A stretch of DNA of 64,000 bases from a virus (taxonomy: Duplodnaviria; Heunggongvirae; Uroviricota; Caudoviricetes): the IMG/VR virus record IMGVR_UViG_2675903433_000022. One strand, 5' to 3'. Shown in pieces: positions 4,244-64,000 of the stretch; positions within the stretch are counted from its first letter, which is position 1; each line of letters starts with the position of its first letter. The notes under the pieces were generated by a model. It saw only the letters and a list, made by a program, of their open reading frames with translations. It was not told the origin of the DNA and ran no database searches. A program made the position numbers and the translations under genes.

Positions 4244-5803
4244 CTAATCTCGTTTCAGAACTCCAAAATCGAATGCTCCATCAATAGGCAATACACCTTC
4301 TGCAAAGCCAGGTGTGGTGTCGATGATGTGTTTTCGCTCATAAGAGTGAGACAACAGGTATTTGTTGCTAATGTCAATGAAATCAGTGATAAAACACACG
4401 TTTGCCTGATTTTTTTTGGCTCGTAAGCCACGACCGACACGCTGCCTCATTTCAACTTCTGCTTTCCCACCACCAGCAAGAATGACCGCACCAACGCTTG
4501 GCACATCAACACCGACATCCAGAATAGTCGAGCCTATTAAAACATCTATTTCTCCAGACGCTAAACTGTTCAGCTTTGCTTGCCTTGTCGCCTGGTTAGA
4601 TTCCCCATAGATGAAGTCAACTCTAAGGCCGGACTCTTTCATCATTTCCATCAGGATTTGCCCGTGGCGTTTAAGACGAACCAGAGTCATACAATTGAGA
4701 GAATGTTGCTTATAGAGCAATGCTTCGCGAACAATGGCCTCGTTACGTCCCAAATTATACACGATCCCCAACTGATAAGCCTTTTGGTAGGCGGTGCTCA
4801 TACCAACTCTAAAATTGAGGTGTTTGTTGGCAAGTTCGGCCTTGATTCTGGCCTCGTCTGGCTTGTAGGCAACTTTATGATAAAGGAAGTACGGCTTTGC
4901 CAGAATGCCTCGATCAATCAGGTACTTTTCTGTGACTTTAATTTCAATTCGCCCGGCCACCGCCATCAGGCGCATGTTGGCTTCCGTCGAATCCTTCATG
5001 AACGGCGTGGCTGTAAGCGCCAGACGATAGTCTGCGTTCACACATAATCTGGCGATGTCATAGAAATTTGAGCCTGAAGACTCATGCGCCTCTTCCAGAA
5101 TAAGAAGAGAGACACTTGAAAGGAAGCGTTTCACCAACTCCCGACGTTTGAGGTGGTAGCTTTTCTTATCTGGTGTTGCATCGCGTGGTGGTTCTTCGAG
5201 GAAACTTGCAAGAGTTTGAACTGTAGCGACGTTGATATGTCGTGATACCTGGAACTCACCCGAGCCAATGACTCCAACCTTTTGGTCTTTTAACCACGGT
5301 TCGCCATTTTCGGCGCGGTAGTCGATGGATCTCTGGAAGTTTTCGGCCATTTGAAACATCAGAACAGAGCGGGTTGTTAAAAATAATGTCATTCGACCGA
5401 TACGTGCAGCTGCTTTGCAGGCAACGTTAGATTTCCCGCCACCAGTAGCGATCTGCGCAATCATCATTCCCTCTCGAACCAGTGTTTCCACAGTCTGATC
5501 CTGATACGCATAATCAGGATTGTATGGGAATGGGTTAACCGCCGGATTTGGTTTACCAAGCGCCGGGGCTTTGTCTTTGCGGATATGAACACATTTGATG
5601 CCCGCCTTGTTCAAGTTCGCCGCTACAGGCTTGGCAAAGCCAGCAGGGAACGAGTTTTTACTCCAGTTGAACATCGTGCTTGTGCCCTTCCAGTCGCCAG
5701 TCTCGACTTCGTAGCTCAACATTTGCTGCACCAGTTGCTTTACCTTGTCATCTGCGCCAGAAATAAGCGCATTTACTGCGTTAGATACAATCCGAACAGT
5801 CAT
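4244..5803 (-). CDS. SF2 DEAH-like helicase (519 aa)
   Basis: Motif I ATGGGKS, motif II LILEEAHES, motif III LTATPF, motif VI QRVGRGLR. Confidence 0.8.
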   Translation of the reverse strand: MTVRIVSNAVNALISGADDKVKQLVQQMLSYEVETGDWKGTSTMFNWSKNSFPAGFAKPVAANLNKAGIKCVHIRKDKAPALGKPNPAVNPFPYNPDYAYQDQTVETLVREGMMIAQIATGGGKSNVACKAAARIGRMTLFLTTRSVLMFQMAENFQRSIDYRAENGEPWLKDQKVGVIGSGEFQVSRHINVATVQTLASFLEEPPRDATPDKKSYHLKRRELVKRFLSSVSLLILEEAHESSGSNFYDIARLCVNADYRLALTATPFMKDSTEANMRLMAVAGRIEIKVTEKYLIDRGILAKPYFLYHKVAYKPDEARIKAELANKHLNFRVGMSTAYQKAYQLGIVYNLGRNEAIVREALLYKQHSLNCMTLVRLKRHGQILMEMMKESGLRVDFIYGESNQATRQAKLNSLASGEIDVLIGSTILDVGVDVPSVGAVILAGGGKAEVEMRQRVGRGLRAKKNQANVCFITDFIDISNKYLLSHSYERKHIIDTTPGFAEGVLPIDGAFDFGVLKRD

Positions 5804-6566: not shown

Positions 6567-7234
6567 TGACCAAAAAGTTTGAAATCGTATATCGCGACCC
6601 GGCAGATCTTATTCCCTATGAGATGAATGCCAAAAAGCATGATGAACAGCAGATCCGAGATCTGGCCGCAGCCATTAAAAAGCGCGGATTTGACCAGCCA
6701 ATTACGGTCGATAAGAACGACGTAATTATTACTGGCCACGGCCGCCGTGAGGCTGCAATTTTTGCTGGACTTGAGCGCGTGCCGGTTATTGTTCGCGATG
6801 ATCTCAGTGATGACGAGGTTCGTGCGAAGCGCCTTGAAGATAACCGACTTGCCAGCATTGATTACGATGCAATTAAGCTACAGAAAGAGCTTGAGTCGCT
6901 TGTTCTGGACGATATCGAGGTTTTCGGCTTTGAAGAGCGTGAGTTGAATGTTCTCGTTGGCAGTATGACAGAAGAAATGGACACCGACTCGCTAGTTATC
7001 GATCTTGGCGAAGAAACTAAACGACAGAAGGATGAACACACCGAGATCAGTCGCGAAGTTGCAGCGGAAGAAGTACGTGTTGTCGACGTATTGGGCTTTA
7101 AAACGCTTCCTGCTGGCTCTGCCATTGTTGTTGGTGATTTGCTTGCCCACATGGAAGAAATGACGGGAGAGAGCGGGGTAGACGCATTTGTGGCATATGC
7201 GGAGAAGATCTCTTCCGGGGAGATGGCTGCATGA
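6566..7234 (+). CDS. ParB/Srx-like N-terminal domain protein (second copy)
   Basis: ParB box GHGRREAA; start overlaps previous stop (TAATG). Confidence 0.65.
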   Translation: MTKKFEIVYRDPADLIPYEMNAKKHDEQQIRDLAAAIKKRGFDQPITVDKNDVIITGHGRREAAIFAGLERVPVIVRDDLSDDEVRAKRLEDNRLASIDYDAIKLQKELESLVLDDIEVFGFEERELNVLVGSMTEEMDTDSLVIDLGEETKRQKDEHTEISREVAAEEVRVVDVLGFKTLPAGSAIVVGDLLAHMEEMTGESGVDAFVAYAEKISSGEMAA

Positions 7235-7896
7235 GCAAATACATCATCAACGTATCGTTTCAGACTCGCGTAAATAAAACCACGCGCACATTGGAAATCG
7301 CTGAGTCGTTCGGGCTTGGCCTGGACGAAAAAGAGTGGACGCTTTACGACAATCTGGAGCTGGAAGTGAAGCAGGGCGATGTGGTGTACATCACCGGCCA
7401 ATCCGGTTCCGGCAAATCCGTTGTGCTGCGCGAGTTGCAACGACAGATGAAGGATGAAGGGCTGTCTGTAGCCTCCATCGATGATTTTACCTTCGATAAT
7501 GAGGTTAACGTCATCGATCAGTTGGGCAAAACGACCAGTGATGCGCTTGGGTTGTTATCTATGGCTGGTCTGAACGATGCATATCTGTTTGTTCGCAAGC
7601 CTTCTGAAATGTCAGACGGCCAGAAATATCGTCTCAAGATTGCCAAACTGATTGAGTCAGGCGCTAAAGTGTGGGCTGCTGACGAGTTCGGCGCTGTTCT
7701 CGACCGTGTAACCGCTCAGGTTGTGGCGTCTAACCTCCAGCGTGCCGCTCGAAAGGTTGGTGCGACGGTAATGGTGGCGACGACTCACGAAGACCTGAAG
7801 AACGCGCTGCGCCCGGATATGCAGATCACCAAGCACTACAAAGAACGCGTGAAGGTGGAATATCACAATGGTAGTCATGATGAGGTCCATTCATGA
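7231..7896 (+). CDS. ABC-type ATPase domain protein (221 aa)
   Basis: Walker A GQSGSGKS, signature-like SDGQKYR, Walker B VWAADEFGA, H-loop TTHED; ATGA overlap with upstream gene. Confidence 0.6.
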   Translation: MSKYIINVSFQTRVNKTTRTLEIAESFGLGLDEKEWTLYDNLELEVKQGDVVYITGQSGSGKSVVLRELQRQMKDEGLSVASIDDFTFDNEVNVIDQLGKTTSDALGLLSMAGLNDAYLFVRKPSEMSDGQKYRLKIAKLIESGAKVWAADEFGAVLDRVTAQVVASNLQRAARKVGATVMVATTHEDLKNALRPDMQITKHYKERVKVEYHNGSHDEVHS

Positions 7897-8783
7897 CGGA
7901 CATCATCATTAAACGCTACCGCCCTGAAGAGTTTCCGCGTCATCTGGACTTTCTGGAGCGAATGACTGTTACAAAGGGAACTGTAGAGGACTGGCACGCT
8001 CTTAAGTCGCTTCACTACAAAACAGACGGCAAACCTTTCGCGCCAACTTACTATCGCTGCGAACTTGATGACCGTCTGGTGGGCGTCGTGGTTATGGCTT
8101 ACCCGAAACTACTGTTGGCACCTCGCCACCGCATGTTTCCTAAGTTGAAACCAACCACTAATACCACCGTGGCTAACCAGTACTGGGGTCGGTACGTGAA
8201 TAACAACTTTGCGGTGATCAGTCGCTCAGTTGTGGATACTCAGTATCGTGGCGTAGGCGTCTCTTATCGAATGATTAACCTGGTTAGCAGGATGCATGAC
8301 CGGCCAATCATTGAGATCCAGTCCTCGATGAGCAAATACAATCCCTTCGCCATGAAAGCAGGGTTTAAGTTCATCCGCCCTGAGCGACCGAAGAGCTATG
8401 AAAGTGCACTGCGTGTATTCCAGCGCCATTTCCGTTCCGACCCGGGTGATAACGAGGCGATCGTCAAAGAGTTGTTCGCAATGAGCGAGTCTCGTCGTCG
8501 CCGTGCACTGCGTGATCTGGTGGCGGACTACCACAAGAACAGTTCCCTGGCAAAAGCTGGGCGGAATCGTGGCACTACGATTCAGGACATTGCCGACAGT
8601 CTGGTGGACGAGGCCAGCATTGTGAAGCTGCTCAAGGACATTCACAACCTGAGCTTTACGTCTCCGTTGTATGGTGTGTACCGAAACCCTGACTTTGGCC
8701 GTCGACTGCCTGACACGCTGCCACTGCTGGCATTCGACAAACAACCTTTGGATAAACCGTTAGAAATTGCTTTACCGGCATAA
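7893..8783 (+). CDS. GNAT-fold acetyltransferase-like protein with C-terminal extension
   Basis: Motif resembling acetyl-CoA binding (VVDTQYRGVGVSYRM) and NPFAMKAGFKFI; ATGA overlap with upstream gene. Confidence 0.4.
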   Translation: MTDIIIKRYRPEEFPRHLDFLERMTVTKGTVEDWHALKSLHYKTDGKPFAPTYYRCELDDRLVGVVVMAYPKLLLAPRHRMFPKLKPTTNTTVANQYWGRYVNNNFAVISRSVVDTQYRGVGVSYRMINLVSRMHDRPIIEIQSSMSKYNPFAMKAGFKFIRPERPKSYESALRVFQRHFRSDPGDNEAIVKELFAMSESRRRRALRDLVADYHKNSSLAKAGRNRGTTIQDIADSLVDEASIVKLLKDIHNLSFTSPLYGVYRNPDFGRRLPDTLPLLAFDKQPLDKPLEIALPA

Positions 8784-31600: not shown

Positions 31601-34600
31601 ATGTGGTACAGGGAAGGTACTATCACATTTACACAGGGCAGCAATACTCTGGTTGGGGCAGGGACAGCCTGGAACGTAACAGCTAATGGTGTGTTGCCGG
31701 GGATGATCGTCATTGGCCCCGACAACAAGCTGTATGAGATCAAGCGCGTAACCAGTGATACGAACATTGTTCTCTCAGAACCTTATACCGGCGAAACTCA
31801 GTCTGAAGTTCCGTGCCGAATCATTACGACCTATGAAGGCGACTTAACACAGTTTAGCGCGCGCTTTACTGCACTAATGTCGCGTATGTCGGCTGATTCC
31901 AAGTCCATGCGCAGTTGGTTGACTGCTCTGGATGAGGTGACAATCGAGCGTGAAGACGGTACAGAAGTGACCGTTAAGCCGCTAATGCAGATCGTCAACG
32001 AGCACAACGAAAACGTTGAGTGGTATAAAAATAACACTGACGCGATTAATGCTGCTGGCGACAAAGCTAGTGAGGCGGCGGCCAGTGCTGCCGCAGCAGC
32101 AGAAAGCGCCAATACCGCTGGAGAAAAAGCCTCTCAAGCGTCTCAAAGTGCATCCGCTGCGGCATCTTCACAAAGTGCTGCAAGTGCGAGCGCAACTGCT
32201 GCGAAAAAATCTGAAACGAACGCACAAGCTGCAAAAGAAGCGGCAGCAGAATCAGCATCTGTAGCGTCGGCCAAAGCATCGGAGGCAGCAACATCTGCGT
32301 CCAGTGCCTCTGCGTCTAAGGATGCAGCCAAAGCATCAGAGACTAACGCTTCATCGAGTGCAAACGCGGCGGCATCATCGGCAACAGAAGCTGCAAATTC
32401 GTCTAAGGCAGCAAAAACGTCAGAGACAAACGCAAAAGCATCTGAAACGGCAGCCGAACAAAGTGCATCGTCTGCAAACAGTTCGAAATCTGCGGCAGAA
32501 GCATCAGCGAGCGCAGCCTCAGCAAGTGCGGTTAGTGCTTCATCAAGTGCAACAGCGGCAGGAAAATCTGCGGATAGTGCATCGTCATCAGCGACAATAG
32601 CTACCACAAAAGCGACAGAGGCGACAAGTCAGGCTACAGCTGCTAAAAATTCAGCATCGGCAGCAAAAACCTCTGAAACAAATGCAAAGGTCTCAGAAGA
32701 CAATGCGGCTTCCTCTAAGGCGGCAGCTGCTGAATCTGCAAGTTCTGCGTCTGCATCAGCCACCTCAGCATCCGCTTCAAAAGATGAGGCGACCAAGCAG
32801 GCATCAGCAGCGAAGGGTAGTGCTTCAACGGCATCCACGAAAGCAACAGAGGCGGCAGGCAGTGCGACGGCTGCATCTCAGAGCAAAGCTGCTGCTGAAT
32901 CCGCTGCGACCCGTGCAGAAGCTGCCGCTGATCGTGCTGAAGAGATTGCCGGTGCAGTTGCGATGGAAGATGCAAGCCTTACCACCAAAGGTGTTGTGAA
33001 ACTTAGCAGTGCTGTCGACAGCACCAGTGAATCTTTAGCCGCGACACCAAAAGCAGTTAAGACCGCATATGATAATGCTGAAAAACGACTACAGAAGGAT
33101 CAGAATGGTGCTGATATCCCCGACAAGGGCCGCTTCCTGAATAACATTAATGTTTACAGCAAAGGTGAAGTGGATAAGAAAAAGGGGATGCGATACGTTG
33201 TGGTAAATGCCCCGGCGGGTGTCCAGGAAGGTAAATATTATCCGTTAGTGATAAAAAGGAATGACAGCCATCGGGCATCCCGCGTTGTCATTTCAACGCC
33301 AAGTCGCACAGCTAATCACAGAATGAATAACTGTGAGTTTAATGGTTTTGTTTGCGCAGGCGGCTGGACGGACCGGGGTAGCTATGCCTGTGGTATGTTC
33401 TGGGCTTATTCATCATCGGAACGCGCTATTCATTCCATTCTGATGAGTAATAAAGGCGATACCGTAGACAGCGTATTCTATATAGAAGGTGGGGCATTTC
33501 CCGTAGAGGTCTTTTTAGAAGAAGGACTCTCCGTTACTGCACCTGCTTCTGATTATGTTGTTGCTGAAACGACTTATAAATTTGGCGCAACTGATCCTTA
33601 TTCTGAATCAGTTGCGGTAAATTTAATTTTAGATTTTAAACAAGGCAATGGATTTTATAGTTCGTATCCTGTTTTGAGTAAGTCAGACATTAGCGGTAAT
33701 AAGGTTTACGCTAATGATGAAGTTATTGTCCGTAGTCAGAATGCGTTAAGGATGATTGCTGGCGATTACGGTGTCATATGGCGAAATGATGGAGCAAATA
33801 CTTACTTGCTGATGACTGATAAAGGCGACCAGTACGGTGGCTGGAACGGTCTTCGACCATTTGCTGTAGATAACGCAACAGGTGAAGTTACGATCAATAC
33901 ACCACTTAATTCTCCAAAAGGGGTTAAGGGGAATTCTGATACAGCTACGAAACTTCAGACTGCAAGAAAAATATCCGGTGTTCCATTTGATGGCTCTACT
34001 GATATCACTTTAACCGCCGCGCATGTTGCCGCTTTCGCAAGAAGAGCAACAGGGTCATATGCGGATGCTGATGGTGGCGTGCCGTGGAATGCTGAATCTG
34101 GTGCTTACAATGTAACTAGAACAGGCGACAGTTATATTCTTGCCAACTTTTATACCGGTGTAGGTAGTTGCCGTACGCTTCAAATTAAAGCTCACTATAA
34201 AAATGGTGGTCTGTTCTACCGTTCCTCAAGAGATGGCTATGGTTTTGAAAGTGGTTGGGAGCAGGTTTACACGACTGGATTTATGCCTCAGCCGGCTGAT
34301 ATAAACGCACCAACCGCTGCCGCTGGATGGTTAAATAGTGGTAACGGAACGGCATTTACGACTGCTCAATTTATAACTTGGCTAAATAATCAGGGGGCAT
34401 TTACAAACAAACATTGGATCGCACGGTGCTCATGGACTTACGCCAACAATAATTATATAGACGACACTGGTTGCGGTAGGATCGATCTATCTGGTTCCGT
34501 GATTGAGGTGTTTAGTAATAAGGCAACAAGCCACTACACTATTCGTGTTACAACGACAACAACATCAGGTCATGGTGGTGTTAATAATGCGGAATTTATT

Positions 34601-36019
34601 TATGTGTACAATGGGAGTGATTATGCGCCAGGCTGGCGTCGTTCTTATAACACCAGAAACAAACCAACAGCTTCTGATGTAGGAGCATTACCGCTTTCAG
34701 GTGGCACATTATCTGGGGGGTTAACGTCTTCTGGTGAGATCGTTTCAAAATATGCAAATGGTTTCCGCATTGCTTACGGTAACTATGGGTTCTTTATCCG
34801 TAATGACGGCGGCAGCACATATTTCATGCTAACAGCATCAGGAGATACGTTAGGTTCATGGAACAGTTTGCGACCGATTACAATTAATAATACCAGCGGT
34901 GTTGTGTCTATTGGTAATGGACTAAATGTTACTGGTGGCGTAAATGGTAGCTTGAATGGCAATGCTTCAACAGCTACGAAGTTACAAACAGCGAGAAACA
35001 TCAATGGTGTTAAGTTTGATGGTTCAGGCGATATCAATATTAATACATTGGTTTCTCGTGGCCGAGTTACGGCTTTAAGCGGTTCTACTCAAGGTACTGC
35101 TGGCATTCAAATGTACGAGGCGTACAACAATAGCTACCCGACCACGTATGGCAACGTATTGCACATGAAAGGGGCGAGTGCTGCTGGTGAGGGCGAGTTG
35201 CTTATTGGCTGGAGTGGTACGAGCGGTGCACATGCGCCGGTTTTCATTCGCTCCCGAAGAGATACCACTGATGCGGCATGGTCAGCGTGGGCGCAGGTAT
35301 ATACTGCTAAGGATTCAATTCCTGGTGTGAATACAACCGGTAATCAGAACACTACTGGTAATGCCGCAACCGCCACAAAATTGCAGACAGCAAGGAAAAT
35401 TGCTGGTGTGGCGTTTGATGGCTCTGCCGATATTACTTTGACTGCGGCTAACCTTAATGCCTATACGAAAACAGAGGTAACAAACCTTCTAAGTTCCTAT
35501 GCAACCAGATCATCACTGACAGGCTATAGTGGCAACCTGGATATTATTGCTGAAACACTGGTTGTCAAATCAGGCGGTAGTGGAGGGTTTGCTATATGGG
35601 ATATTGGCACAACTACTAGCGGTGCCAATATGTACATTGATCCAAACCCAGGTATCAATACAGTTTGGCGTTCAACATCTTCAAGGCGCTATAAAAAGGA
35701 TATTGAAACATTACAAGATCGATATGCTGATGAACTTTTGTCATTAAGACCTGTTTGGTATCGTTCAATTTGTCGAGGTGACCGAAAGGATTGGGGGTAT
35801 TACGGCCTTATTGCTGAAGAGGTTGGTGAGATTGCCCCGCAATATGTCCATTGGCGTGAACCAACAAATAATGATTCTCCAGAAGATATTTCCTCAAATG
35901 GTATGGTCGCTGAAGGGGTGATGTATGAGCGTTTGGTTGTACCACTCATTCATCATATTCAGCAATTGACCAAAAGGGTTGAGGAGCTTGAAACGAAGTT
36001 AAATTCACCTAAAGAATAA
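31601..36019 (+). CDS. side tail fibre protein with C-terminal intramolecular chaperone domain
   Basis: About 300-aa Ala/Ser-rich low-complexity segment; three copies of TATKLQTARKI.GV.FDGS.DI motif; C-terminal YKKDIETL ... ELETKL region resembling the auto-cleaving S74-type chaperone domain. Confidence 0.75.
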   Translation: MWYREGTITFTQGSNTLVGAGTAWNVTANGVLPGMIVIGPDNKLYEIKRVTSDTNIVLSEPYTGETQSEVPCRIITTYEGDLTQFSARFTALMSRMSADSKSMRSWLTALDEVTIEREDGTEVTVKPLMQIVNEHNENVEWYKNNTDAINAAGDKASEAAASAAAAAESANTAGEKASQASQSASAAASSQSAASASATAAKKSETNAQAAKEAAAESASVASAKASEAATSASSASASKDAAKASETNASSSANAAASSATEAANSSKAAKTSETNAKASETAAEQSASSANSSKSAAEASASAASASAVSASSSATAAGKSADSASSSATIATTKATEATSQATAAKNSASAAKTSETNAKVSEDNAASSKAAAAESASSASASATSASASKDEATKQASAAKGSASTASTKATEAAGSATAASQSKAAAESAATRAEAAADRAEEIAGAVAMEDASLTTKGVVKLSSAVDSTSESLAATPKAVKTAYDNAEKRLQKDQNGADIPDKGRFLNNINVYSKGEVDKKKGMRYVVVNAPAGVQEGKYYPLVIKRNDSHRASRVVISTPSRTANHRMNNCEFNGFVCAGGWTDRGSYACGMFWAYSSSERAIHSILMSNKGDTVDSVFYIEGGAFPVEVFLEEGLSVTAPASDYVVAETTYKFGATDPYSESVAVNLILDFKQGNGFYSSYPVLSKSDISGNKVYANDEVIVRSQNALRMIAGDYGVIWRNDGANTYLLMTDKGDQYGGWNGLRPFAVDNATGEVTINTPLNSPKGVKGNSDTATKLQTARKISGVPFDGSTDITLTAAHVAAFARRATGSYADADGGVPWNAESGAYNVTRTGDSYILANFYTGVGSCRTLQIKAHYKNGGLFYRSSRDGYGFESGWEQVYTTGFMPQPADINAPTAAAGWLNSGNGTAFTTAQFITWLNNQGAFTNKHWIARCSWTYANNNYIDDTGCGRIDLSGSVIEVFSNKATSHYTIRVTTTTTSGHGGVNNAEFIYVYNGSDYAPGWRRSYNTRNKPTASDVGALPLSGGTLSGGLTSSGEIVSKYANGFRIAYGNYGFFIRNDGGSTYFMLTASGDTLGSWNSLRPITINNTSGVVSIGNGLNVTGGVNGSLNGNASTATKLQTARNINGVKFDGSGDININTLVSRGRVTALSGSTQGTAGIQMYEAYNNSYPTTYGNVLHMKGASAAGEGELLIGWSGTSGAHAPVFIRSRRDTTDAAWSAWAQVYTAKDSIPGVNTTGNQNTTGNAATATKLQTARKIAGVAFDGSADITLTAANLNAYTKTEVTNLLSSYATRSSLTGYSGNLDIIAETLVVKSGGSGGFAIWDIGTTTSGANMYIDPNPGINTVWRSTSSRRYKKDIETLQDRYADELLSLRPVWYRSICRGDRKDWGYYGLIAEEVGEIAPQYVHWREPTNNDSPEDISSNGMVAEGVMYERLVVPLIHHIQQLTKRVEELETKLNSPKE

Positions 36020-41252: not shown

Positions 41253-42020
41253 TTATGCCGCGCTAACACTATGTTCAGTCCTAACCACCCCAACCTTCAC
41301 AAAAGGGCTACCGTAGCTTGGTGGCTTCTTGATTAATTTGCCTACATACAGTTTTCTAATATGCTCATCGGCTATTCTGCCAACAAATTCATAACGTTTT
41401 GTGTCGGGGCCAAGAGCTATATCCCTTGTAAAGTACTGCTGAGAACCGGCTTTGACCCAGCATTCAATCCGATAAACTTCCATTATCAGCCCACCATATG
41501 TAGCGTAGGCATATTTGAGATTCTCGTCTCTTGGAACCTTTGCCCATACGCCACGCGTAGCTTCATATAATGCCAGAGCGGACATTCCTGACTTGTAGGT
41601 GCTGTTTAGCAGGAAGGCAAGACCGGCGTGCTCAGGAGCAATTTCAGTTTCCTCTTGCAGCACTAAGTGATGGTAGGCGTCCAGTGATATTCTGCCCATC
41701 ATGGAACCACTTCCTCGTACCTTATTCGTAAGCTCTCCGACCCCCATAAGGTCGATGCATGTCGCCTCAACAAGTTTGGCTGTGGTTTCATCCATACCAT
41801 GACGAAGTATATCTATGCCTAATTTTTTATTAGCCAAAAGTTCTTTGATCCGCATGGATTTGGGAGAGTCATCGGGATACTTGATGTGATCGAGACAACG
41901 AGTCGATTTGCCTTTTCCTATGTAAAACGGTCTTTTCATCTTGTCTTCTGTATCATAGAGACAGTAAACATAGTATTTAGCCTTATCCAATGATCTCGCG
42001 TATACCGATAAATCGTCCAT
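41253..42020 (-). CDS. GIY-YIG nuclease domain protein with uncharacterised C-terminal domain
   Basis: N-terminal YYVYCLYD ... PFYIGKGKSTRCLDH (GIY-YIG-like); about 170-aa C-terminal region unknown. Confidence 0.5.
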   Translation of the reverse strand: MDDLSVYARSLDKAKYYVYCLYDTEDKMKRPFYIGKGKSTRCLDHIKYPDDSPKSMRIKELLANKKLGIDILRHGMDETTAKLVEATCIDLMGVGELTNKVRGSGSMMGRISLDAYHHLVLQEETEIAPEHAGLAFLLNSTYKSGMSALALYEATRGVWAKVPRDENLKYAYATYGGLIMEVYRIECWVKAGSQQYFTRDIALGPDTKRYEFVGRIADEHIRKLYVGKLIKKPPSYGSPFVKVGVVRTEHSVSAA

Positions 42021-49997: not shown

Positions 49998-50072
49998 GAT
50001 GGTGTAGCTCAGCGGTAGAGCAGTTGGCTGTTAACCAACTGGTCGGTGGTTCGAATCCACCCACCATCGCCA
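49998..50072 (+). tRNA. tRNA-Asn (anticodon GTT)
   Basis: Cloverleaf folded by hand: acceptor GATGGTG/CACCATC, D-stem GCTC/GAGC, anticodon loop CTGTTAA, T-loop GGTGG-TTCGAAT-CCACC, then G-CCA. Confidence 0.75.
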
Positions 50073-50074
50073 AT

Positions 50075-50150
50075 GCCGGTTTAGCTCAGTTGGTAGAGCA
50101 CCTGCCTTGTAAGCAGGATGTCAGCGGTTCGAGTCCGTTAACCGGCACCA
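50075..50150 (+). tRNA. tRNA-Thr (anticodon TGT)
   Basis: Acceptor GCCGGTT/AACCGGC, D-arm GCTC-AGTTGGTA-GAGC, anticodon loop CTTGTAA, T-arm AGCGG-TTCGAGT-CCGTT, A-CCA. Confidence 0.75.
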
Positions 50151-50374
50151 ATACAACGATAAGATCATTACGGTTAATCGTCGTTCATGTGCACAATGAC
50201 TGGTCGAAAGGTAGTGATCTTACCGTTGTGGTGGATTCGCAGACTGATGCGATAGCTTTCTTGGATGTTAGGGAAATGCGGCCGCAAATCTTCCCTTTCG
50301 CGAGCGGTGATCGTCCGTAGTCCTAATTGGCTGCACCGTATGCCGGAGATTCAGTACCGGCCACCACAACGGCC

Positions 50375-50461
50375 GGAGAGTAGGGAGCATGGTGCTCAAG
50401 CGGTCTTGAAAACCGTCCCATTGCGCAAGCGATGATGGTTCGATTCCATTACTCTCCGCCA
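50375..50461 (+). tRNA. putative type II tRNA-Ser (anticodon TGA), atypical
   Basis: Acceptor GGAGAGT/ACTCTCC, anticodon stem-loop GCGGT-CTTGAAA-ACCGT, long variable arm, T-arm GATGG-TTCGATT-CCATT, G-CCA; position 8 is A rather than U and D-stem is only 3 bp. Confidence 0.45.
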
Positions 50462-50463
50462 GA

Positions 50464-50541
50464 CACAGCGTTGAGCGGTTTGGCCTTTTAATCAACTCGA
50501 TTAAGACTCCGCTAACATAAACCAGACCGCTCAACGCTGTG
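50464..50541. repeat. 20-bp inverted repeat pair (CACAGCGTTGAGCGGTTTGG / rc) directly after tRNA-Ser
   Basis: Arms at 50464..50483 and 50522..50541, 19 of 20 matching; arms resemble the 49609/49715 pair (CACA[AG]CGTTGAG). Confidence 0.55.
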
Positions 50542-50615
50542 ATAGACAATTACGGCAGACGTTCTTAACCATAGCTTGCTAACATCCTAGCAACACTTTT
50601 TTCAGCGCAAAATTC

Positions 50616-50639
50616 AAAGGGGCTTCGGCCCCTTTTTTG
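50616..50639 (+). terminator. rho-independent terminator
   Basis: AAAGGGGC-ttcg-GCCCCTTTTTTG. Confidence 0.75.
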
Positions 50640-50681
50640 CAACTGAAAGAGTCAAGTCTACGAACTTTGTAGGAAGAAATA

Positions 50682-51032
50682 ATGACCAGCAAAGAGAACA
50701 CACCACTAAAAGTCACCTCTGAACACATTGAACAACTCATTCAAAGTGAACATTATTTCACTGCATATGATGCCAGCCACGGGGATAACTTCATCTCTGT
50801 TTACAATTCAAAAACAGATATCGACAACGGTCATGAGTCGTTAAAACTCTTAACGTTCTGCGTTATGATTCTCAAAAATGGATATACCGTAACGGGAAAA
50901 TCTGCGTGCGTAAGACCAGAAATCTTCAACTTTGATGTTGGTCGCGAGTACGCTCGAAAAGATGCTATCGATCAAATCTGGCCCCTGGAAGGCTATCTCC
51001 TGAAGCAAAAGTGGCATGAGGCAAAGCAATGA
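50682..51032 (+). CDS. hypothetical protein (116 aa)
   Basis: ORF track. Confidence 0.45.
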   Translation: MTSKENTPLKVTSEHIEQLIQSEHYFTAYDASHGDNFISVYNSKTDIDNGHESLKLLTFCVMILKNGYTVTGKSACVRPEIFNFDVGREYARKDAIDQIWPLEGYLLKQKWHEAKQ

Positions 51033-51274
51033 CGATCACTATCTACGGACGAGATAACTGCTCATACTGCAAACGTGCGGTCGAGCTGGCGAAGCAACTA
51101 AAGGGACATGGCTACGGTGATTATGAGTACATCGACATCACCACTGCCGGTATCGACAAGAAAAAACTAAGTGAAATTGTTGGTAAACCGGTAGAGACTA
51201 TCCCCCAGGTACTGATCGATGGCCAACCGATTGGCGGATACACTGAACTGGCTGCATACGTCAGCACCCTCTGA
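51029..51274 (+). CDS. glutaredoxin/NrdH-like redoxin
   Basis: CSYC active-site motif near N-terminus; 81 aa; ATGA overlap with upstream gene. Confidence 0.6.
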   Translation: MTITIYGRDNCSYCKRAVELAKQLKGHGYGDYEYIDITTAGIDKKKLSEIVGKPVETIPQVLIDGQPIGGYTELAAYVSTL

Positions 51275-61345: not shown

Positions 61346-62374
61346 ATGTCTAAGACATTACTTGATTTGCTTAACAAAACTCGTGAAGACATTGCCGCCA
61401 AACGTGGCAACAACGTTGATCTGACTCGCTTAAAAGACGGCGTCAACTATATCCGCATCTTCCCGAATAAAGACGACCCAAACGGTAAGTTCTTCCAGAC
61501 TTTCGGTATGCACTACGTTAAGTATCAGAACGAGGAAGGTAAAGAAGCAACCAACGCTTATATTTGTGAGCAACATACTCACGGTCGCGCTTGTCAGCTA
61601 TGCGAAATGGTGATGGAAGGTCGCGCTCGTCACAAGGGTAACAAAGCAATGGAAGAACGCATCGGTCAAATGCGTGCCACTCCTCGCTACCTGGTCAACG
61701 GCATTCTTTCTGCTCGTGAGGATTTCGCAGATGCTGAGAAATGCCAGTTAATCGAGCTGCCGTCTACTGTATTCGATGATATCTGCAAAGCAATCACCGA
61801 AGACATCGCTGATGATATCGGCAATCCACTGAGCAAAGAGGAAGGCTACGCATTCCTGATTAAACGTACTGGCTCTGGTCGCGATACCAAATATGACGTC
61901 TCGCCTAAGCGTAAAGTCTACAAAGGCGATATCGAAGATAAATTCTGGAACACCCAGCATGATCTGATCGCATACGCAAATCAGGCTGATGAAACTCGTC
62001 TTCTGTCGACAGTTCGCACTATGGGTCGTCTGATTGGCATCGCTGCACCAACTGCCGCAGCATCTGCACCAGCAATTTCCTCTACCGCGAAAACATCGGC
62101 CGCGGCACTGCCTGGATTTGGCTCTGTCACTGGTCATACGGAGGGTGCGACTGCTGTAGCTACCGCTCACACCCCAGCTTCTGAACCAACCAGTCTGGTT
62201 GATGAAGAAATCCTCCGTGCCGTTGAAACTGAATTTAAACCAGAGGCAAGTTCCGCTGCCGTTGCAGTATCAGTCAAAGAGTCTGAAGCAGTCGCAGCGA
62301 CATCTGTAGCAGCCGCATCTGCGACGGAAGATGAAGGTCTGGATGACCTACTGAGAGAGCTGGACTCTCTGTAA
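61346..62374 (+). CDS. single-stranded DNA-binding protein (T4 gp32-like)
   Basis: Zn-binding-like C-x2-H-x5-C-x2-C (CEQHTHGRACQLC); acidic C-terminal tail EDEGLDDLLRELDSL. Confidence 0.55.
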   Translation: MSKTLLDLLNKTREDIAAKRGNNVDLTRLKDGVNYIRIFPNKDDPNGKFFQTFGMHYVKYQNEEGKEATNAYICEQHTHGRACQLCEMVMEGRARHKGNKAMEERIGQMRATPRYLVNGILSAREDFADAEKCQLIELPSTVFDDICKAITEDIADDIGNPLSKEEGYAFLIKRTGSGRDTKYDVSPKRKVYKGDIEDKFWNTQHDLIAYANQADETRLLSTVRTMGRLIGIAAPTAAASAPAISSTAKTSAAALPGFGSVTGHTEGATAVATAHTPASEPTSLVDEEILRAVETEFKPEASSAAVAVSVKESEAVAATSVAAASATEDEGLDDLLRELDSL

Positions 62375-62390
62375 TCCCATTACGTGACCA

Positions 62391-62420
62391 GTAAGGCGTC
62401 TACGGACGCCTTACTTTTTG
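62391..62420 (+). terminator. rho-independent terminator after SSB gene
   Basis: GTAAGGCGTC-tacg-GACGCCTTAC followed by TTTTTGG; lies inside the 5' end of ORF-track ORF 62384..62707. Confidence 0.6.
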
Positions 62421-62434
62421 GAAGGAATGTACCG

Positions 62435-62704
62435 GTGAATTATCTCTTCGTAGATGGCAATAGCCTGGGTTATTACCACCAACAATCTGACAAATTGCAC
62501 AACGGTGAAATGGAAGTACAGGCTGCTTTCGGCTTTGTTAAGAACGTCCGTCGTTATGCCTCCATCCTCCATGCCCGACCTATGATTCTTTGGGATGGAT
62601 TTAGTGACAAGCGTCGCGACTTTTACCCGGACTACAAAGCAAATCGCGACGACGATCCTGATATGAAAAAGATGAAGGAAGGCTTTGCTATCCAGAAGCC
62701 ATAC
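62435..62704 (+). pseudogene. 5'-3' exonuclease / flap endonuclease (T5 D15-like), truncated by IS insertion
   Basis: GTG start after GGAAGG RBS; N-terminal motifs NYLFVDGNSLGY and YKANRDDDP; reading frame ends in the TGA formed by the IS terminus at 62705..62707. Confidence 0.65.
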
Positions 62705-62746
62705 TGAACCGCCCCGGGTTTCCTGGAGAGTATTTTATCTGTGAAC

Positions 62747-63634
62747 TCAGGCTGCCAGATCATTATTTCCGATGGAAGCATAATAAGCTTTTTCTGCTTC
62801 TGCCGGAGGAATATGGCCCAGCCTTTCCAGCAATCGTCGATTGTTATACCAGTCCACCCACGTTAGTGTGGCCAGTTCCACTTCTGTCCGGTTTTTCCAG
62901 CTCTTACGGTGTATTACCTCCGCTTTGTAAAGACCATTGATGCTCTCAGCCATCGCGTTGTCATACGAGTCGCCAGTACTCCCTGTTGATGCCAGTAATC
63001 CGGCTTCCTTAAGCCGCTGCGTGTAGGCCAGCGATACATACTGAGAACCTTTATCACTGTGATGGATTGTGCCGGACGGCCGACGGGCCCACAACGCCTG
63101 CTCCAGTGCATCCAGCACGAATGTTGTTTCCATGGATGATGAGACCTGCCATCCCACGATGTATCCGGCGAACACATCAATGATGAACGCCACATAAACG
63201 AAGCCCTGCCATGTGCTTACCCAGGTAAAATCAGCCACCCACAACTGGTCTGGACGTTCTGCCACGAACTGACGGTTTACGCGGTCGCATGCGGCAACGG
63301 CTTTCCGGCTGACGGTAGTGCGGACCTTTTTACCCCGGAGAACACCGGCAAGTCCCATAACTGCCATGAGACGTGCCACAGTGCATCTGGCCACTCTGAT
63401 ACCTTCCCGTAACAACTGACGCCAGACTTTACGCACACCGTATACCTGGTGATTTTCATCGTATACGCGCTGTATCTCTTTCTTCAGCCAGTCATCGTGC
63501 TGCGCACGGGCACTGCGTTTATCCGGATGATGTCGCTGTTGCTGACAATGGTAATACGTTGACGGGGCAATATGCAGTTCGCTGCATACCGGTCCGACCC
63601 CGTACTGCTCACGCAGCTTATCCAGCAGTGGCAT
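62747..63634 (-). CDS. IS3-family transposase OrfB (DDE integrase domain)
   Basis: 295-aa ORF with DDE-transposase-like segments (WVADFTW ... DKGSQY ... DNAMAES). Confidence 0.8.
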   Translation of the reverse strand: MPLLDKLREQYGVGPVCSELHIAPSTYYHCQQQRHHPDKRSARAQHDDWLKKEIQRVYDENHQVYGVRKVWRQLLREGIRVARCTVARLMAVMGLAGVLRGKKVRTTVSRKAVAACDRVNRQFVAERPDQLWVADFTWVSTWQGFVYVAFIIDVFAGYIVGWQVSSSMETTFVLDALEQALWARRPSGTIHHSDKGSQYVSLAYTQRLKEAGLLASTGSTGDSYDNAMAESINGLYKAEVIHRKSWKNRTEVELATLTWVDWYNNRRLLERLGHIPPAEAEKAYYASIGNNDLAA

Positions 63635-63960
63635 TATTTTTTCCAGAGGCGGTCGAACTCCGCCTTCGCAAAATAAGCGGAAGCCTGGCGAAGGATATCG
63701 TTACTGCGGCGCAGTTCACGATTTTCACGTTCCAGCTCTTTCAGACGCTGACGTTCAGCGGTGGTGAGTCCACCATCACCACTCCCGGTATCCCGCTCAT
63801 GCTGACGAACCCACACACGCAGAGTCTCTGGTGTACAGCCAATCTTTGGGGCAATGGAACAAATTGCCGCCCATTGTGAGTCATATTCGCCCTGACTTTC
63901 CAGAACCATACGAACTGCCCGTTGACGGACCTCGGGGGAAAAACGTGTATTTTTAGTCAT
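63634..63960 (-). CDS. IS3-family transposase OrfA (HTH)
   Basis: 108 aa with HTH and leucine-zipper-like C-terminus; overlaps orfB start as expected for -1 frameshift fusion. Confidence 0.8.
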
Positions 63961-64000
63961 CCTGTTTACCTCTTTCTCAGGGAGTTTAGTCTCCAGGATT

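Follow-up and report, generated by a model that had tools for sequence, protein, structure and literature searches.

At the right-hand end of the DNA stretch analyzed here (the window, 64,000 nt), a plus-strand reading frame for a 5'-3' exonuclease of the flap-endonuclease family stops exactly where an insertion sequence begins, which raises the questions of how the gene came to be interrupted, where the rest of it lies, and what its loss would mean for the element that carries it. A preliminary description of this DNA had attributed the truncation to an IS629-like element and had placed the remainder of the gene beyond it, past the window edge. Here we report that the exonuclease gene is indeed truncated by a copy of IS629, and we consider it highly probable that this is an ordinary insertion between codons 90 and 91 of the exonuclease gene of an SSU5/Cyrano-like phage-plasmid in Escherichia coli.

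The remnant of the gene occupies positions 62435..62704 on the plus strand and comprises codons 1-90 of 314. Read over 61800-64000, the plus-strand frame includes ...NYLFVDGNSLGY...YKANRDDDPDMKKMKEGFAIQKPY, ends in ...FAIQKPY, and is closed, in the sequence as in the list of open reading frames, by a TGA at 62705..62707 on the same strand. The terminal inverted repeat of IS629 contributes this stop with its first three bases, so a frame of about 90 codons ending in an IS-derived TGA, as originally proposed, is what the DNA contains. The proposed start at position 62384 has to be revised. The GTG at 62384 is the start of the longest possible frame and lies upstream of a hairpin at 62391-62419, which that frame crosses, whereas the GTG at 62435 corresponds to the annotated start in relatives and is preceded at 62420-62427 by a Shine-Dalgarno sequence, GGAAGGAA. 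The hairpin (62391..62419, plus strand) is strong and terminator-like, with a 10-bp stem GTAAGGCGTC/GACGCCTTAC and a TACG loop followed by a run of five T residues, and the fold of 62376-62430 has an energy of -21.9 kcal/mol (z=-4.3); a terminator consensus scan did not pick it up because too few T residues follow the stem. It most likely terminates the gene directly upstream within the replication module, which encodes a gp32-like single-strand DNA-binding protein of 342 aa (61346..62374, plus strand; PF08804 gp32, E=1.7e-66) and is conserved in relatives. Against PF02739, the profile of the 5'-3' exonuclease N-terminal domain, the exonuclease remnant aligns to positions 2-80 of 164 (E=2.8e-8) with 34.1 bits, just below the gathering cut-off of 34.3 because half of the domain is missing from the truncated product. 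The 90-aa product is an exact match to CTZ88318.1, annotated as 'exonuclease [Escherichia coli]'.

The inserted element belongs to the IS3 family, lies on the minus strand, and fills the window from 62705 to 64000, with 1296 of its 1310 bp present. Its visible end begins at 62705 with the motif TGAACCGCCCCGGG, and comparison with an identical full-length copy delimits the terminal inverted repeat of the orfB-proximal end, TGAACCGCCCCGGGTTTCCTGGAGAG, at 62705..62730 (plus strand); the repeat of the opposite end reads TGAACCGCCCCGGAAATCCTGGAGAC in that copy, and the last 14 nt missing from the window are TCCGGGGCGGTTCA. Both transposase genes are on the minus strand, as first described: orfB (62747..63634), counted from an internal ATG, encodes 295 aa with the catalytic part of a DDE transposase (rve, E=1.5e-26, together with HTH_21 and rve_3), and orfA (63634..63960) encodes 108 aa with an HTH_Tnp_1 domain (PF01527, E=1.4e-12), the product being named 'OrfA of IS629' in phage BP-4795. 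An ALIL pseudoknot at 63563..63679 on the same strand, which signals the programmed -1 frameshift joining orfA to orfB, matches the Rfam family RF01497 over its full length (120.3 bits versus a gathering score of 50). The domains, the sequence identity and the frameshift signal all agree with the original assignment to an IS629-like element. Over its 1296 bp, the element shows 100% identity to IS3-family loci in the complete chromosomes of several STEC-type E. coli; its identity to the 'IS629 OrfA/OrfB' copy of BP-4795, which is flanked by an ACC duplication, is 98.7%. These two identities justify the label IS629. The identical copy in NZ_CP027591.1 is complete at 1310 bp, with the ends TGAACCGCCCCGGGTTTCC... 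and ...GGATTTCCGGGGCGGTTCA, both repeats and a CAT duplication, and RefSeq annotates it as one IS3 family transposase with a programmed frameshift, corresponding to 62747-63960.

The copy in the window thus does not differ from IS629 as known, with its isoforms IS1203 and IS3411, from E. coli O157/STEC and Shigella sonnei: it shares the DDE (rve) transposase and the -1 frameshift that joins orfA to orfB, with its A-run and ALIL pseudoknot, and its visible end, taken with the other end of the identical full-length copy, fits the TGA...TCA ends and the imperfect repeats of about 25 bp; its location alone is particular. IS629-related sequence occurs in 4257 of the 5426 complete E. coli genomes, and no further copy was found elsewhere in the 64-kb window. 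An Escherichia or Shigella background, which the preliminary description had deduced from the element, is borne out by the annotation of the two exonuclease products (CTZ88318.1 and CTZ87312.1, the latter described below) as E. coli proteins. IS629 is reported to generate duplications of 3-4 bp, to have no sequence-specific target, to be strongly associated with prophages and plasmids, and to have hit one gene, gne, repeatedly (PMC3271280). Excision of IS629 promoted by IEE has also been described (PMC9943667).

Comparison with IS-free relatives, which had been suggested as a check on the truncation, reveals what the gene looks like when uninterrupted. The 2 kb upstream of the IS have matches in 779 plasmid records. 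Most of these plasmids are non-mobilizable and about 110 kb in size, their hosts including Escherichia, Klebsiella and Salmonella, and the E. coli records are 98-99% identical. The IS-free relatives, which number in the hundreds among SSU5/Cyrano-like phage-plasmids, carry a 945-bp gene for a protein of 314 aa, annotated as '5'-3' exonuclease H3TH domain-containing protein', and over their first 270 nt these intact genes share 99.7% identity with the remnant. They align base for base up to position 62704 and diverge exactly there, continuing with ATCCTCAAAATGATG... (ATCCTCAAAATGATGACC...) where the window has the IS. Positions 1-62704 of the window are collinear with the IS-free plasmid pIso00225_02 (circular, 110,850 bp), mostly at 95-98% identity, except for one segment at 86.6% and some short stretches that are not shared. 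The collinear modules include terminase, portal, capsid and tail genes, a DnaB-like helicase, an integrase, a CobT/AAA module, a DnaE-like polymerase and the single-strand DNA-binding protein. The 5' end of the exonuclease gene is also 99.3-99.7% identical to those of the phages Cyrano, CMS-2020a and PhiR41_1, and Cyrano (pLF82) is an SSU5-like phage-plasmid that produces virions (PMC9928086). Judged by its collinear modules and its relation to plasmids of about 110 kb, the window element is an SSU5/Cyrano-like phage-plasmid. It has the same terminase, portal, capsid, tail, DnaE-like polymerase, DnaB-like helicase, gp32-like single-strand DNA-binding protein and exonuclease as elements of the SSU5/Cyrano (pLF82)/pHCM2 type, from which it differs in the IS629 insertion, in its tail-fibre region, and in a GIY-YIG reading frame at one variable spot.

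In the explanation that we favor, a transposition-competent copy of IS629 entered the exonuclease gene between codons 90 and 91 through the transposition usual for the IS3 family. It came to lie antisense to the gene, whose reading frame is closed by the terminal TGA of the IS. Two parts of the gene result, an N-terminal stub of 90 aa and a C-terminal remainder of residues 91-314 whose annotation begins at M95, and the target duplication would be the 3-bp sequence TAC.

Insertions into the same part of the gene were detected in other elements. In the complete plasmid pRM9131-1 (NZ_CP028430.1, a phage-plasmid from an E. coli cattle isolate), an IS629/IS1203 copy is inserted 24 bp upstream of the window's site, after codon 82, in the same orientation, with a GAA duplication and with the remainder of the gene directly after the IS. 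This copy is annotated as IS1203 family and is 94.9% identical to the window IS629, and therefore represents a different isoform; the backbone of the window differs as well from that of pRM9131-1, which has cspG-side genes upstream and an IncFIB typing. A megablast search of the window junction against PLSDB plasmids, complete E. coli genomes and phages recovered only pRM9131-1 and no identical junction, a synthetic junction in the opposite orientation had no match in plasmids, and the exact left and right junction patterns were not found in viral, metagenome or species-representative genome collections. Among Logan contigs, L005 (SRR9967562) carries the same IS end at exactly the insertion site of the window, and L004 carries the opposite IS end (TGAACCGCCCCGGAAATCC...) at exactly that site. 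Given its opposite orientation, L004 was not inherited from the same insertion event. In both contigs the backbone diverges by about 2% from that of the window, and the upstream gene content is different as well. Exact truncated products of 90 aa occur on 8-17 contigs and those of 82 aa on 5 contigs, compared with 0-2 contigs for each of the lengths 85, 87-89, 91-93 and 95 aa, and a partial protein of Shigella sonnei, lying at a contig edge, has Y90 as its first residue. Seven further contigs with the 90-aa product (L006-L012) were set aside as evidence for an IS, since they end 0-2 nt after codon 90 with the IS-free sequence CATACAT.

These observations permit a reading in which the event is recurrent, either because codons 82-90 are a preferred target of IS629 or because selection favors losing the exonuclease, for instance during domestication into a plain plasmid. 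We regard it as plausible, though somewhat short of an even chance. In its favor, the same phosphodiester bond was hit in both orientations (the window and L005 versus L004) in backbones that differ from each other, pRM9131-1 adds a third insertion 24 bp upstream, the 90-aa and 82-aa products outnumber those of the other lengths between 85 and 95 aa, and the S. sonnei protein begins at Y90. However, the queries covered this site only, which introduces an ascertainment bias, and products of 82 and 90 aa, being closed by a genuine stop codon, are more readily recorded than partial proteins at contig edges. The local DNA offers no obvious attractant: a target mimicking the IS629 inverted repeat, a kind of target recognized for certain IS3-family elements, was considered and rejected, as 35% of background windows score at least as high as the local maximum of 7, and so was a DNA hairpin or other structure marking the site (z=-0.55). 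Published work on IS629 contains no target consensus (PMC3271280), and selection for exonuclease loss would be expected to spread insertions over the gene rather than direct them to one bond. The stronger statement, that codons 82-90 are a genuine IS629 hotspot with at least three independent hits, owing to an unrecognized target preference or to selection that repeatedly favors losing the flap endonuclease, is one that we put forward tentatively and are inclined to doubt.

The location of the rest of the gene bears on whether the window copy reflects a simple insertion. The window corresponds to positions 46,677-110,676 of the E. coli draft contig CYGC01000020.1 (GCA_001283185.1, 110,676 bp), the final 11,566 bp of which are matched exactly by the tail of the window. 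The IS is therefore incomplete at position 64000, in agreement with the preliminary description, but it cannot be followed past the window edge as supposed there, since the contig itself ends at this position, 14 nt short of the IS629 end. The expected remainder of the exonuclease gene, which is not present elsewhere in the 64-kb window, does exist, though not within reach beyond 64000: an exact look-up of the C-terminal fragment MTALGVTQ...FERYC, residues 95-314 (220 aa), identified CTZ87312.1, again annotated as 'exonuclease [Escherichia coli]'. This protein is found on one contig only, which at 110,676 bp has the size of CYGC01000020.1, and the longest contig with the N-terminal stub CTZ88318.1 also measures 110,676 bp; the placement of the C-terminal fragment on the same contig is read from this equal size, not from coordinates. 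The two accession numbers are 1006 apart, which speaks against a shared contig in that one contig holds only about 130 genes; such a gap can be reconciled with a single contig only if the numbering did not follow positional order. The part of pIso00225_02 that is not covered by the window amounts to 46,399 bp, close to the 46,676 bp of the contig that lie upstream of the window, and from these matching sizes the contig is taken to be a complete circular element opened inside the IS. There is thus a strong case that the far end of this contig holds the exonuclease remainder, the circle having been linearized within a repeat by a short-read assembler. The contig start should then carry the IS end followed by TACATCCTCAAAATGATGACC... 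and the rest of the exonuclease gene; in order, one would read ...GGTTCA, then TACATCCTCAAAATGATGACCGCG..., with 672 nt of the gene left, and the circle would consist of about 109.4 kb plus the 1310 bp of the IS.

An IS-mediated deletion or rearrangement, by which the downstream part of the exonuclease gene and perhaps more would have been lost or moved, is very unlikely. Such an event took place at the second IS629 of pRM9131-1, which has non-matching flanks (GTAG and CTTT) and no target duplication and has deleted and replaced the recombinase region next to repA, and the right junction of the window IS629 lies beyond the contig end. Against this reading, a C-terminal fragment starting from M95, 5 codons after the insertion, is on a contig of identical length, and the 110,676 bp of the contig fit a complete element. 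Still less credible is an assembly artefact, in which the real molecule would have an intact exonuclease gene and the IS would have been wrongly appended where a repeat begins. In favor of it, the contig ends within a multicopy repeat, as is typical for short-read assemblies, and complete E. coli genomes abound in IS629-like sequence. Against it, the junction is covered by unique sequence to either side of the 13-nt repeat end that is shared, a second read set gave the identical junction in an independent assembly (L005), an intact gene would have let the contig run through, and the exonuclease is annotated as two separate pieces.

The metal ligands of the T5 flap endonuclease (FEN) are D26, D68, E128, D130, D153, D155, D201 and D204, and their counterparts indicate what the insertion would do to the enzyme. 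The intact 314-aa homologue aligns over residues 2-217 with T5 FEN (1EXN, 5HMM, 1UT5; E ~1e-15), as well as with the 5' nuclease domains of Taq and Pol I, and cluster relatives of the full-length exonuclease carry PF02739 and PF01367. Together with the PF02739 match of the remnant, these alignments bear out the first description of the gene as T5 D15/Pol I 5'-nuclease-like. The motifs of the intact protein are VDG (D7), WDG (D54), YKANR (67-71), EADD (108-112), GDSD (135-138), GDKSDN (186-191) and the H3TH motif GVGGIG (194-199), so that it shares both the acidic motifs and the H3TH of the T5 D15 FEN/Pol I 5' nuclease family (PF02739 plus PF01367), of which the window copy keeps residues 1-90 only. 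By alignment with T5 FEN, the stub retains two of the eight metal-binding acidic residues (D7 and D54) and the lysine and arginine of YKANR, and the remainder holds the other six acidic ligands and the H3TH DNA-binding motif. The window copy lacks the full ligand set and the H3TH, with EADD, GDSD, GDKSDN and GVGGIG all located after the insertion point; since only the first two ligands precede that point, the window encodes a pseudogene fragment and not a functional member of the family. Neither the stub nor the remainder should be active as a nuclease, and loss of the enzyme's activity is all but certain. A search of the literature found no activity assay for an exonuclease of an SSU5-like phage-plasmid.

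With the insertion as reconstructed above, the phage-plasmid would lose its own primer and flap removal activity, and the element may be defective for exonuclease-dependent replication or recombination, an effect that host Pol I may buffer. Its maintenance in the plasmid mode would be unaffected, because this mode relies on RepA and host enzymes, and the survival of IS-disrupted alleles, which occur in one complete plasmid and in several assemblies, argues that maintenance can do without the exonuclease. When the element replicates lytically with its own DnaE-type polymerase, primers and flaps probably have to be removed. The 5' nuclease of host Pol I substitutes for T4 RNase H, and by analogy it may provide this function in the lytic replication of the phage-plasmid. 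If so, lytic replication would be at most weakened.

The locus represents a standard insertion of a well-known IS into a well-known family of phage-plasmids, already deposited and annotated. It accounts for the presence of two separate 'exonuclease' genes (CTZ88318.1 and CTZ87312.1) in the draft assembly and for the position at which the contig ends, and it marks this phage-plasmid copy as one that is predicted to be without its own nuclease for primer and flap removal, in an IS629-rich E. coli host. Its importance beyond annotation is small, the possible hotspot being the only mildly unusual aspect. If the hotspot is true, codons 82-90 of the exonuclease gene would provide a defined natural target for studies of IS629 site choice, and the disrupted copies would be natural knock-outs for assessing the need for the exonuclease in the lytic growth of SSU5-like phage-plasmids.

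The bond after codon 90 of the 5'-3' exonuclease gene carries IS629 in both orientations, as found in two Logan contigs from separate read sets (L004, 3356-3397; L005, 3356-3396), and a third copy of the element lies 24 bp upstream of this bond in the complete plasmid pRM9131-1 (NZ_CP028430.1, L002 in our set; 4260-5600). The exonuclease gene may contain a hotspot for IS629. The pRM9131-1 record contains six IS629 matches, among them a second IS629/IS1203 copy (6926-8235), which adjoins repA and stands in place of the recombinase gene of the relatives. The flanks of this copy, GTAG and CTTT, do not match, and this mismatch, together with the position at the recombinase gene, points to a deletion or rearrangement mediated by the IS.

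At the predicted right junction of the IS629 copy in the window, which lies outside the window and was reconstructed assuming a 3-bp target duplication, the reading frame of the exonuclease remainder extends upstream into the IS end for 135 nt without a stop codon and includes a TTG codon at -93. A chimeric IS-exonuclease ORF is in principle present on this junction; no record of such a chimeric protein was found in the protein collection searched. The gap that separates the exonuclease start from the gp32-like gene contains a strong hairpin followed by a T5 tract (62391-62419; z = -4.3), with a 10-bp GC-rich stem and a TACG loop. This structure, which was not picked up by a consensus scan for terminators, probably acts as an intrinsic terminator or as an attenuator within the replication operon.

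Elsewhere in the window, the segment 41198-42144 is absent from the close relative pIso00225_02 and includes a 255-aa ORF on the minus strand (41253-42020), in which a GIY-YIG nuclease domain of the LEM-3-like type is recognised (PF22945, 30.1 bits). It may be an insert of the homing-endonuclease or defence type at a variable site. The 1472-aa tail-fibre ORF (31601-36019) combines Gp34_trimer repeats with a C-terminal Peptidase_S74 chaperone; its centre, especially 33082-34541, is unmatched in the relative, where a far shorter fibre is annotated, and this difference is host-range module variation. A cluster of three tRNA genes (49998-50461; Asn-GTT, Thr-TGT, and Ser-TGA), only two of which reach the Rfam tRNA threshold, is flanked by a region (50074-51040) that is shared only in part with the relative.

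In the look-up of the C-terminal exonuclease fragment, the protein-cluster table mixes gp32-like 'regulator' proteins with exonucleases, presumably due to a fused representative. Two Shigella sonnei proteins are also fragments of the exonuclease, namely the N-terminal 66 aa (MLK22687.1) and a partial product starting from Y90 (MLK22327.1), and they may come from one assembly. If they do, an IS and an adjacent 72-nt deletion may occupy the same spot.
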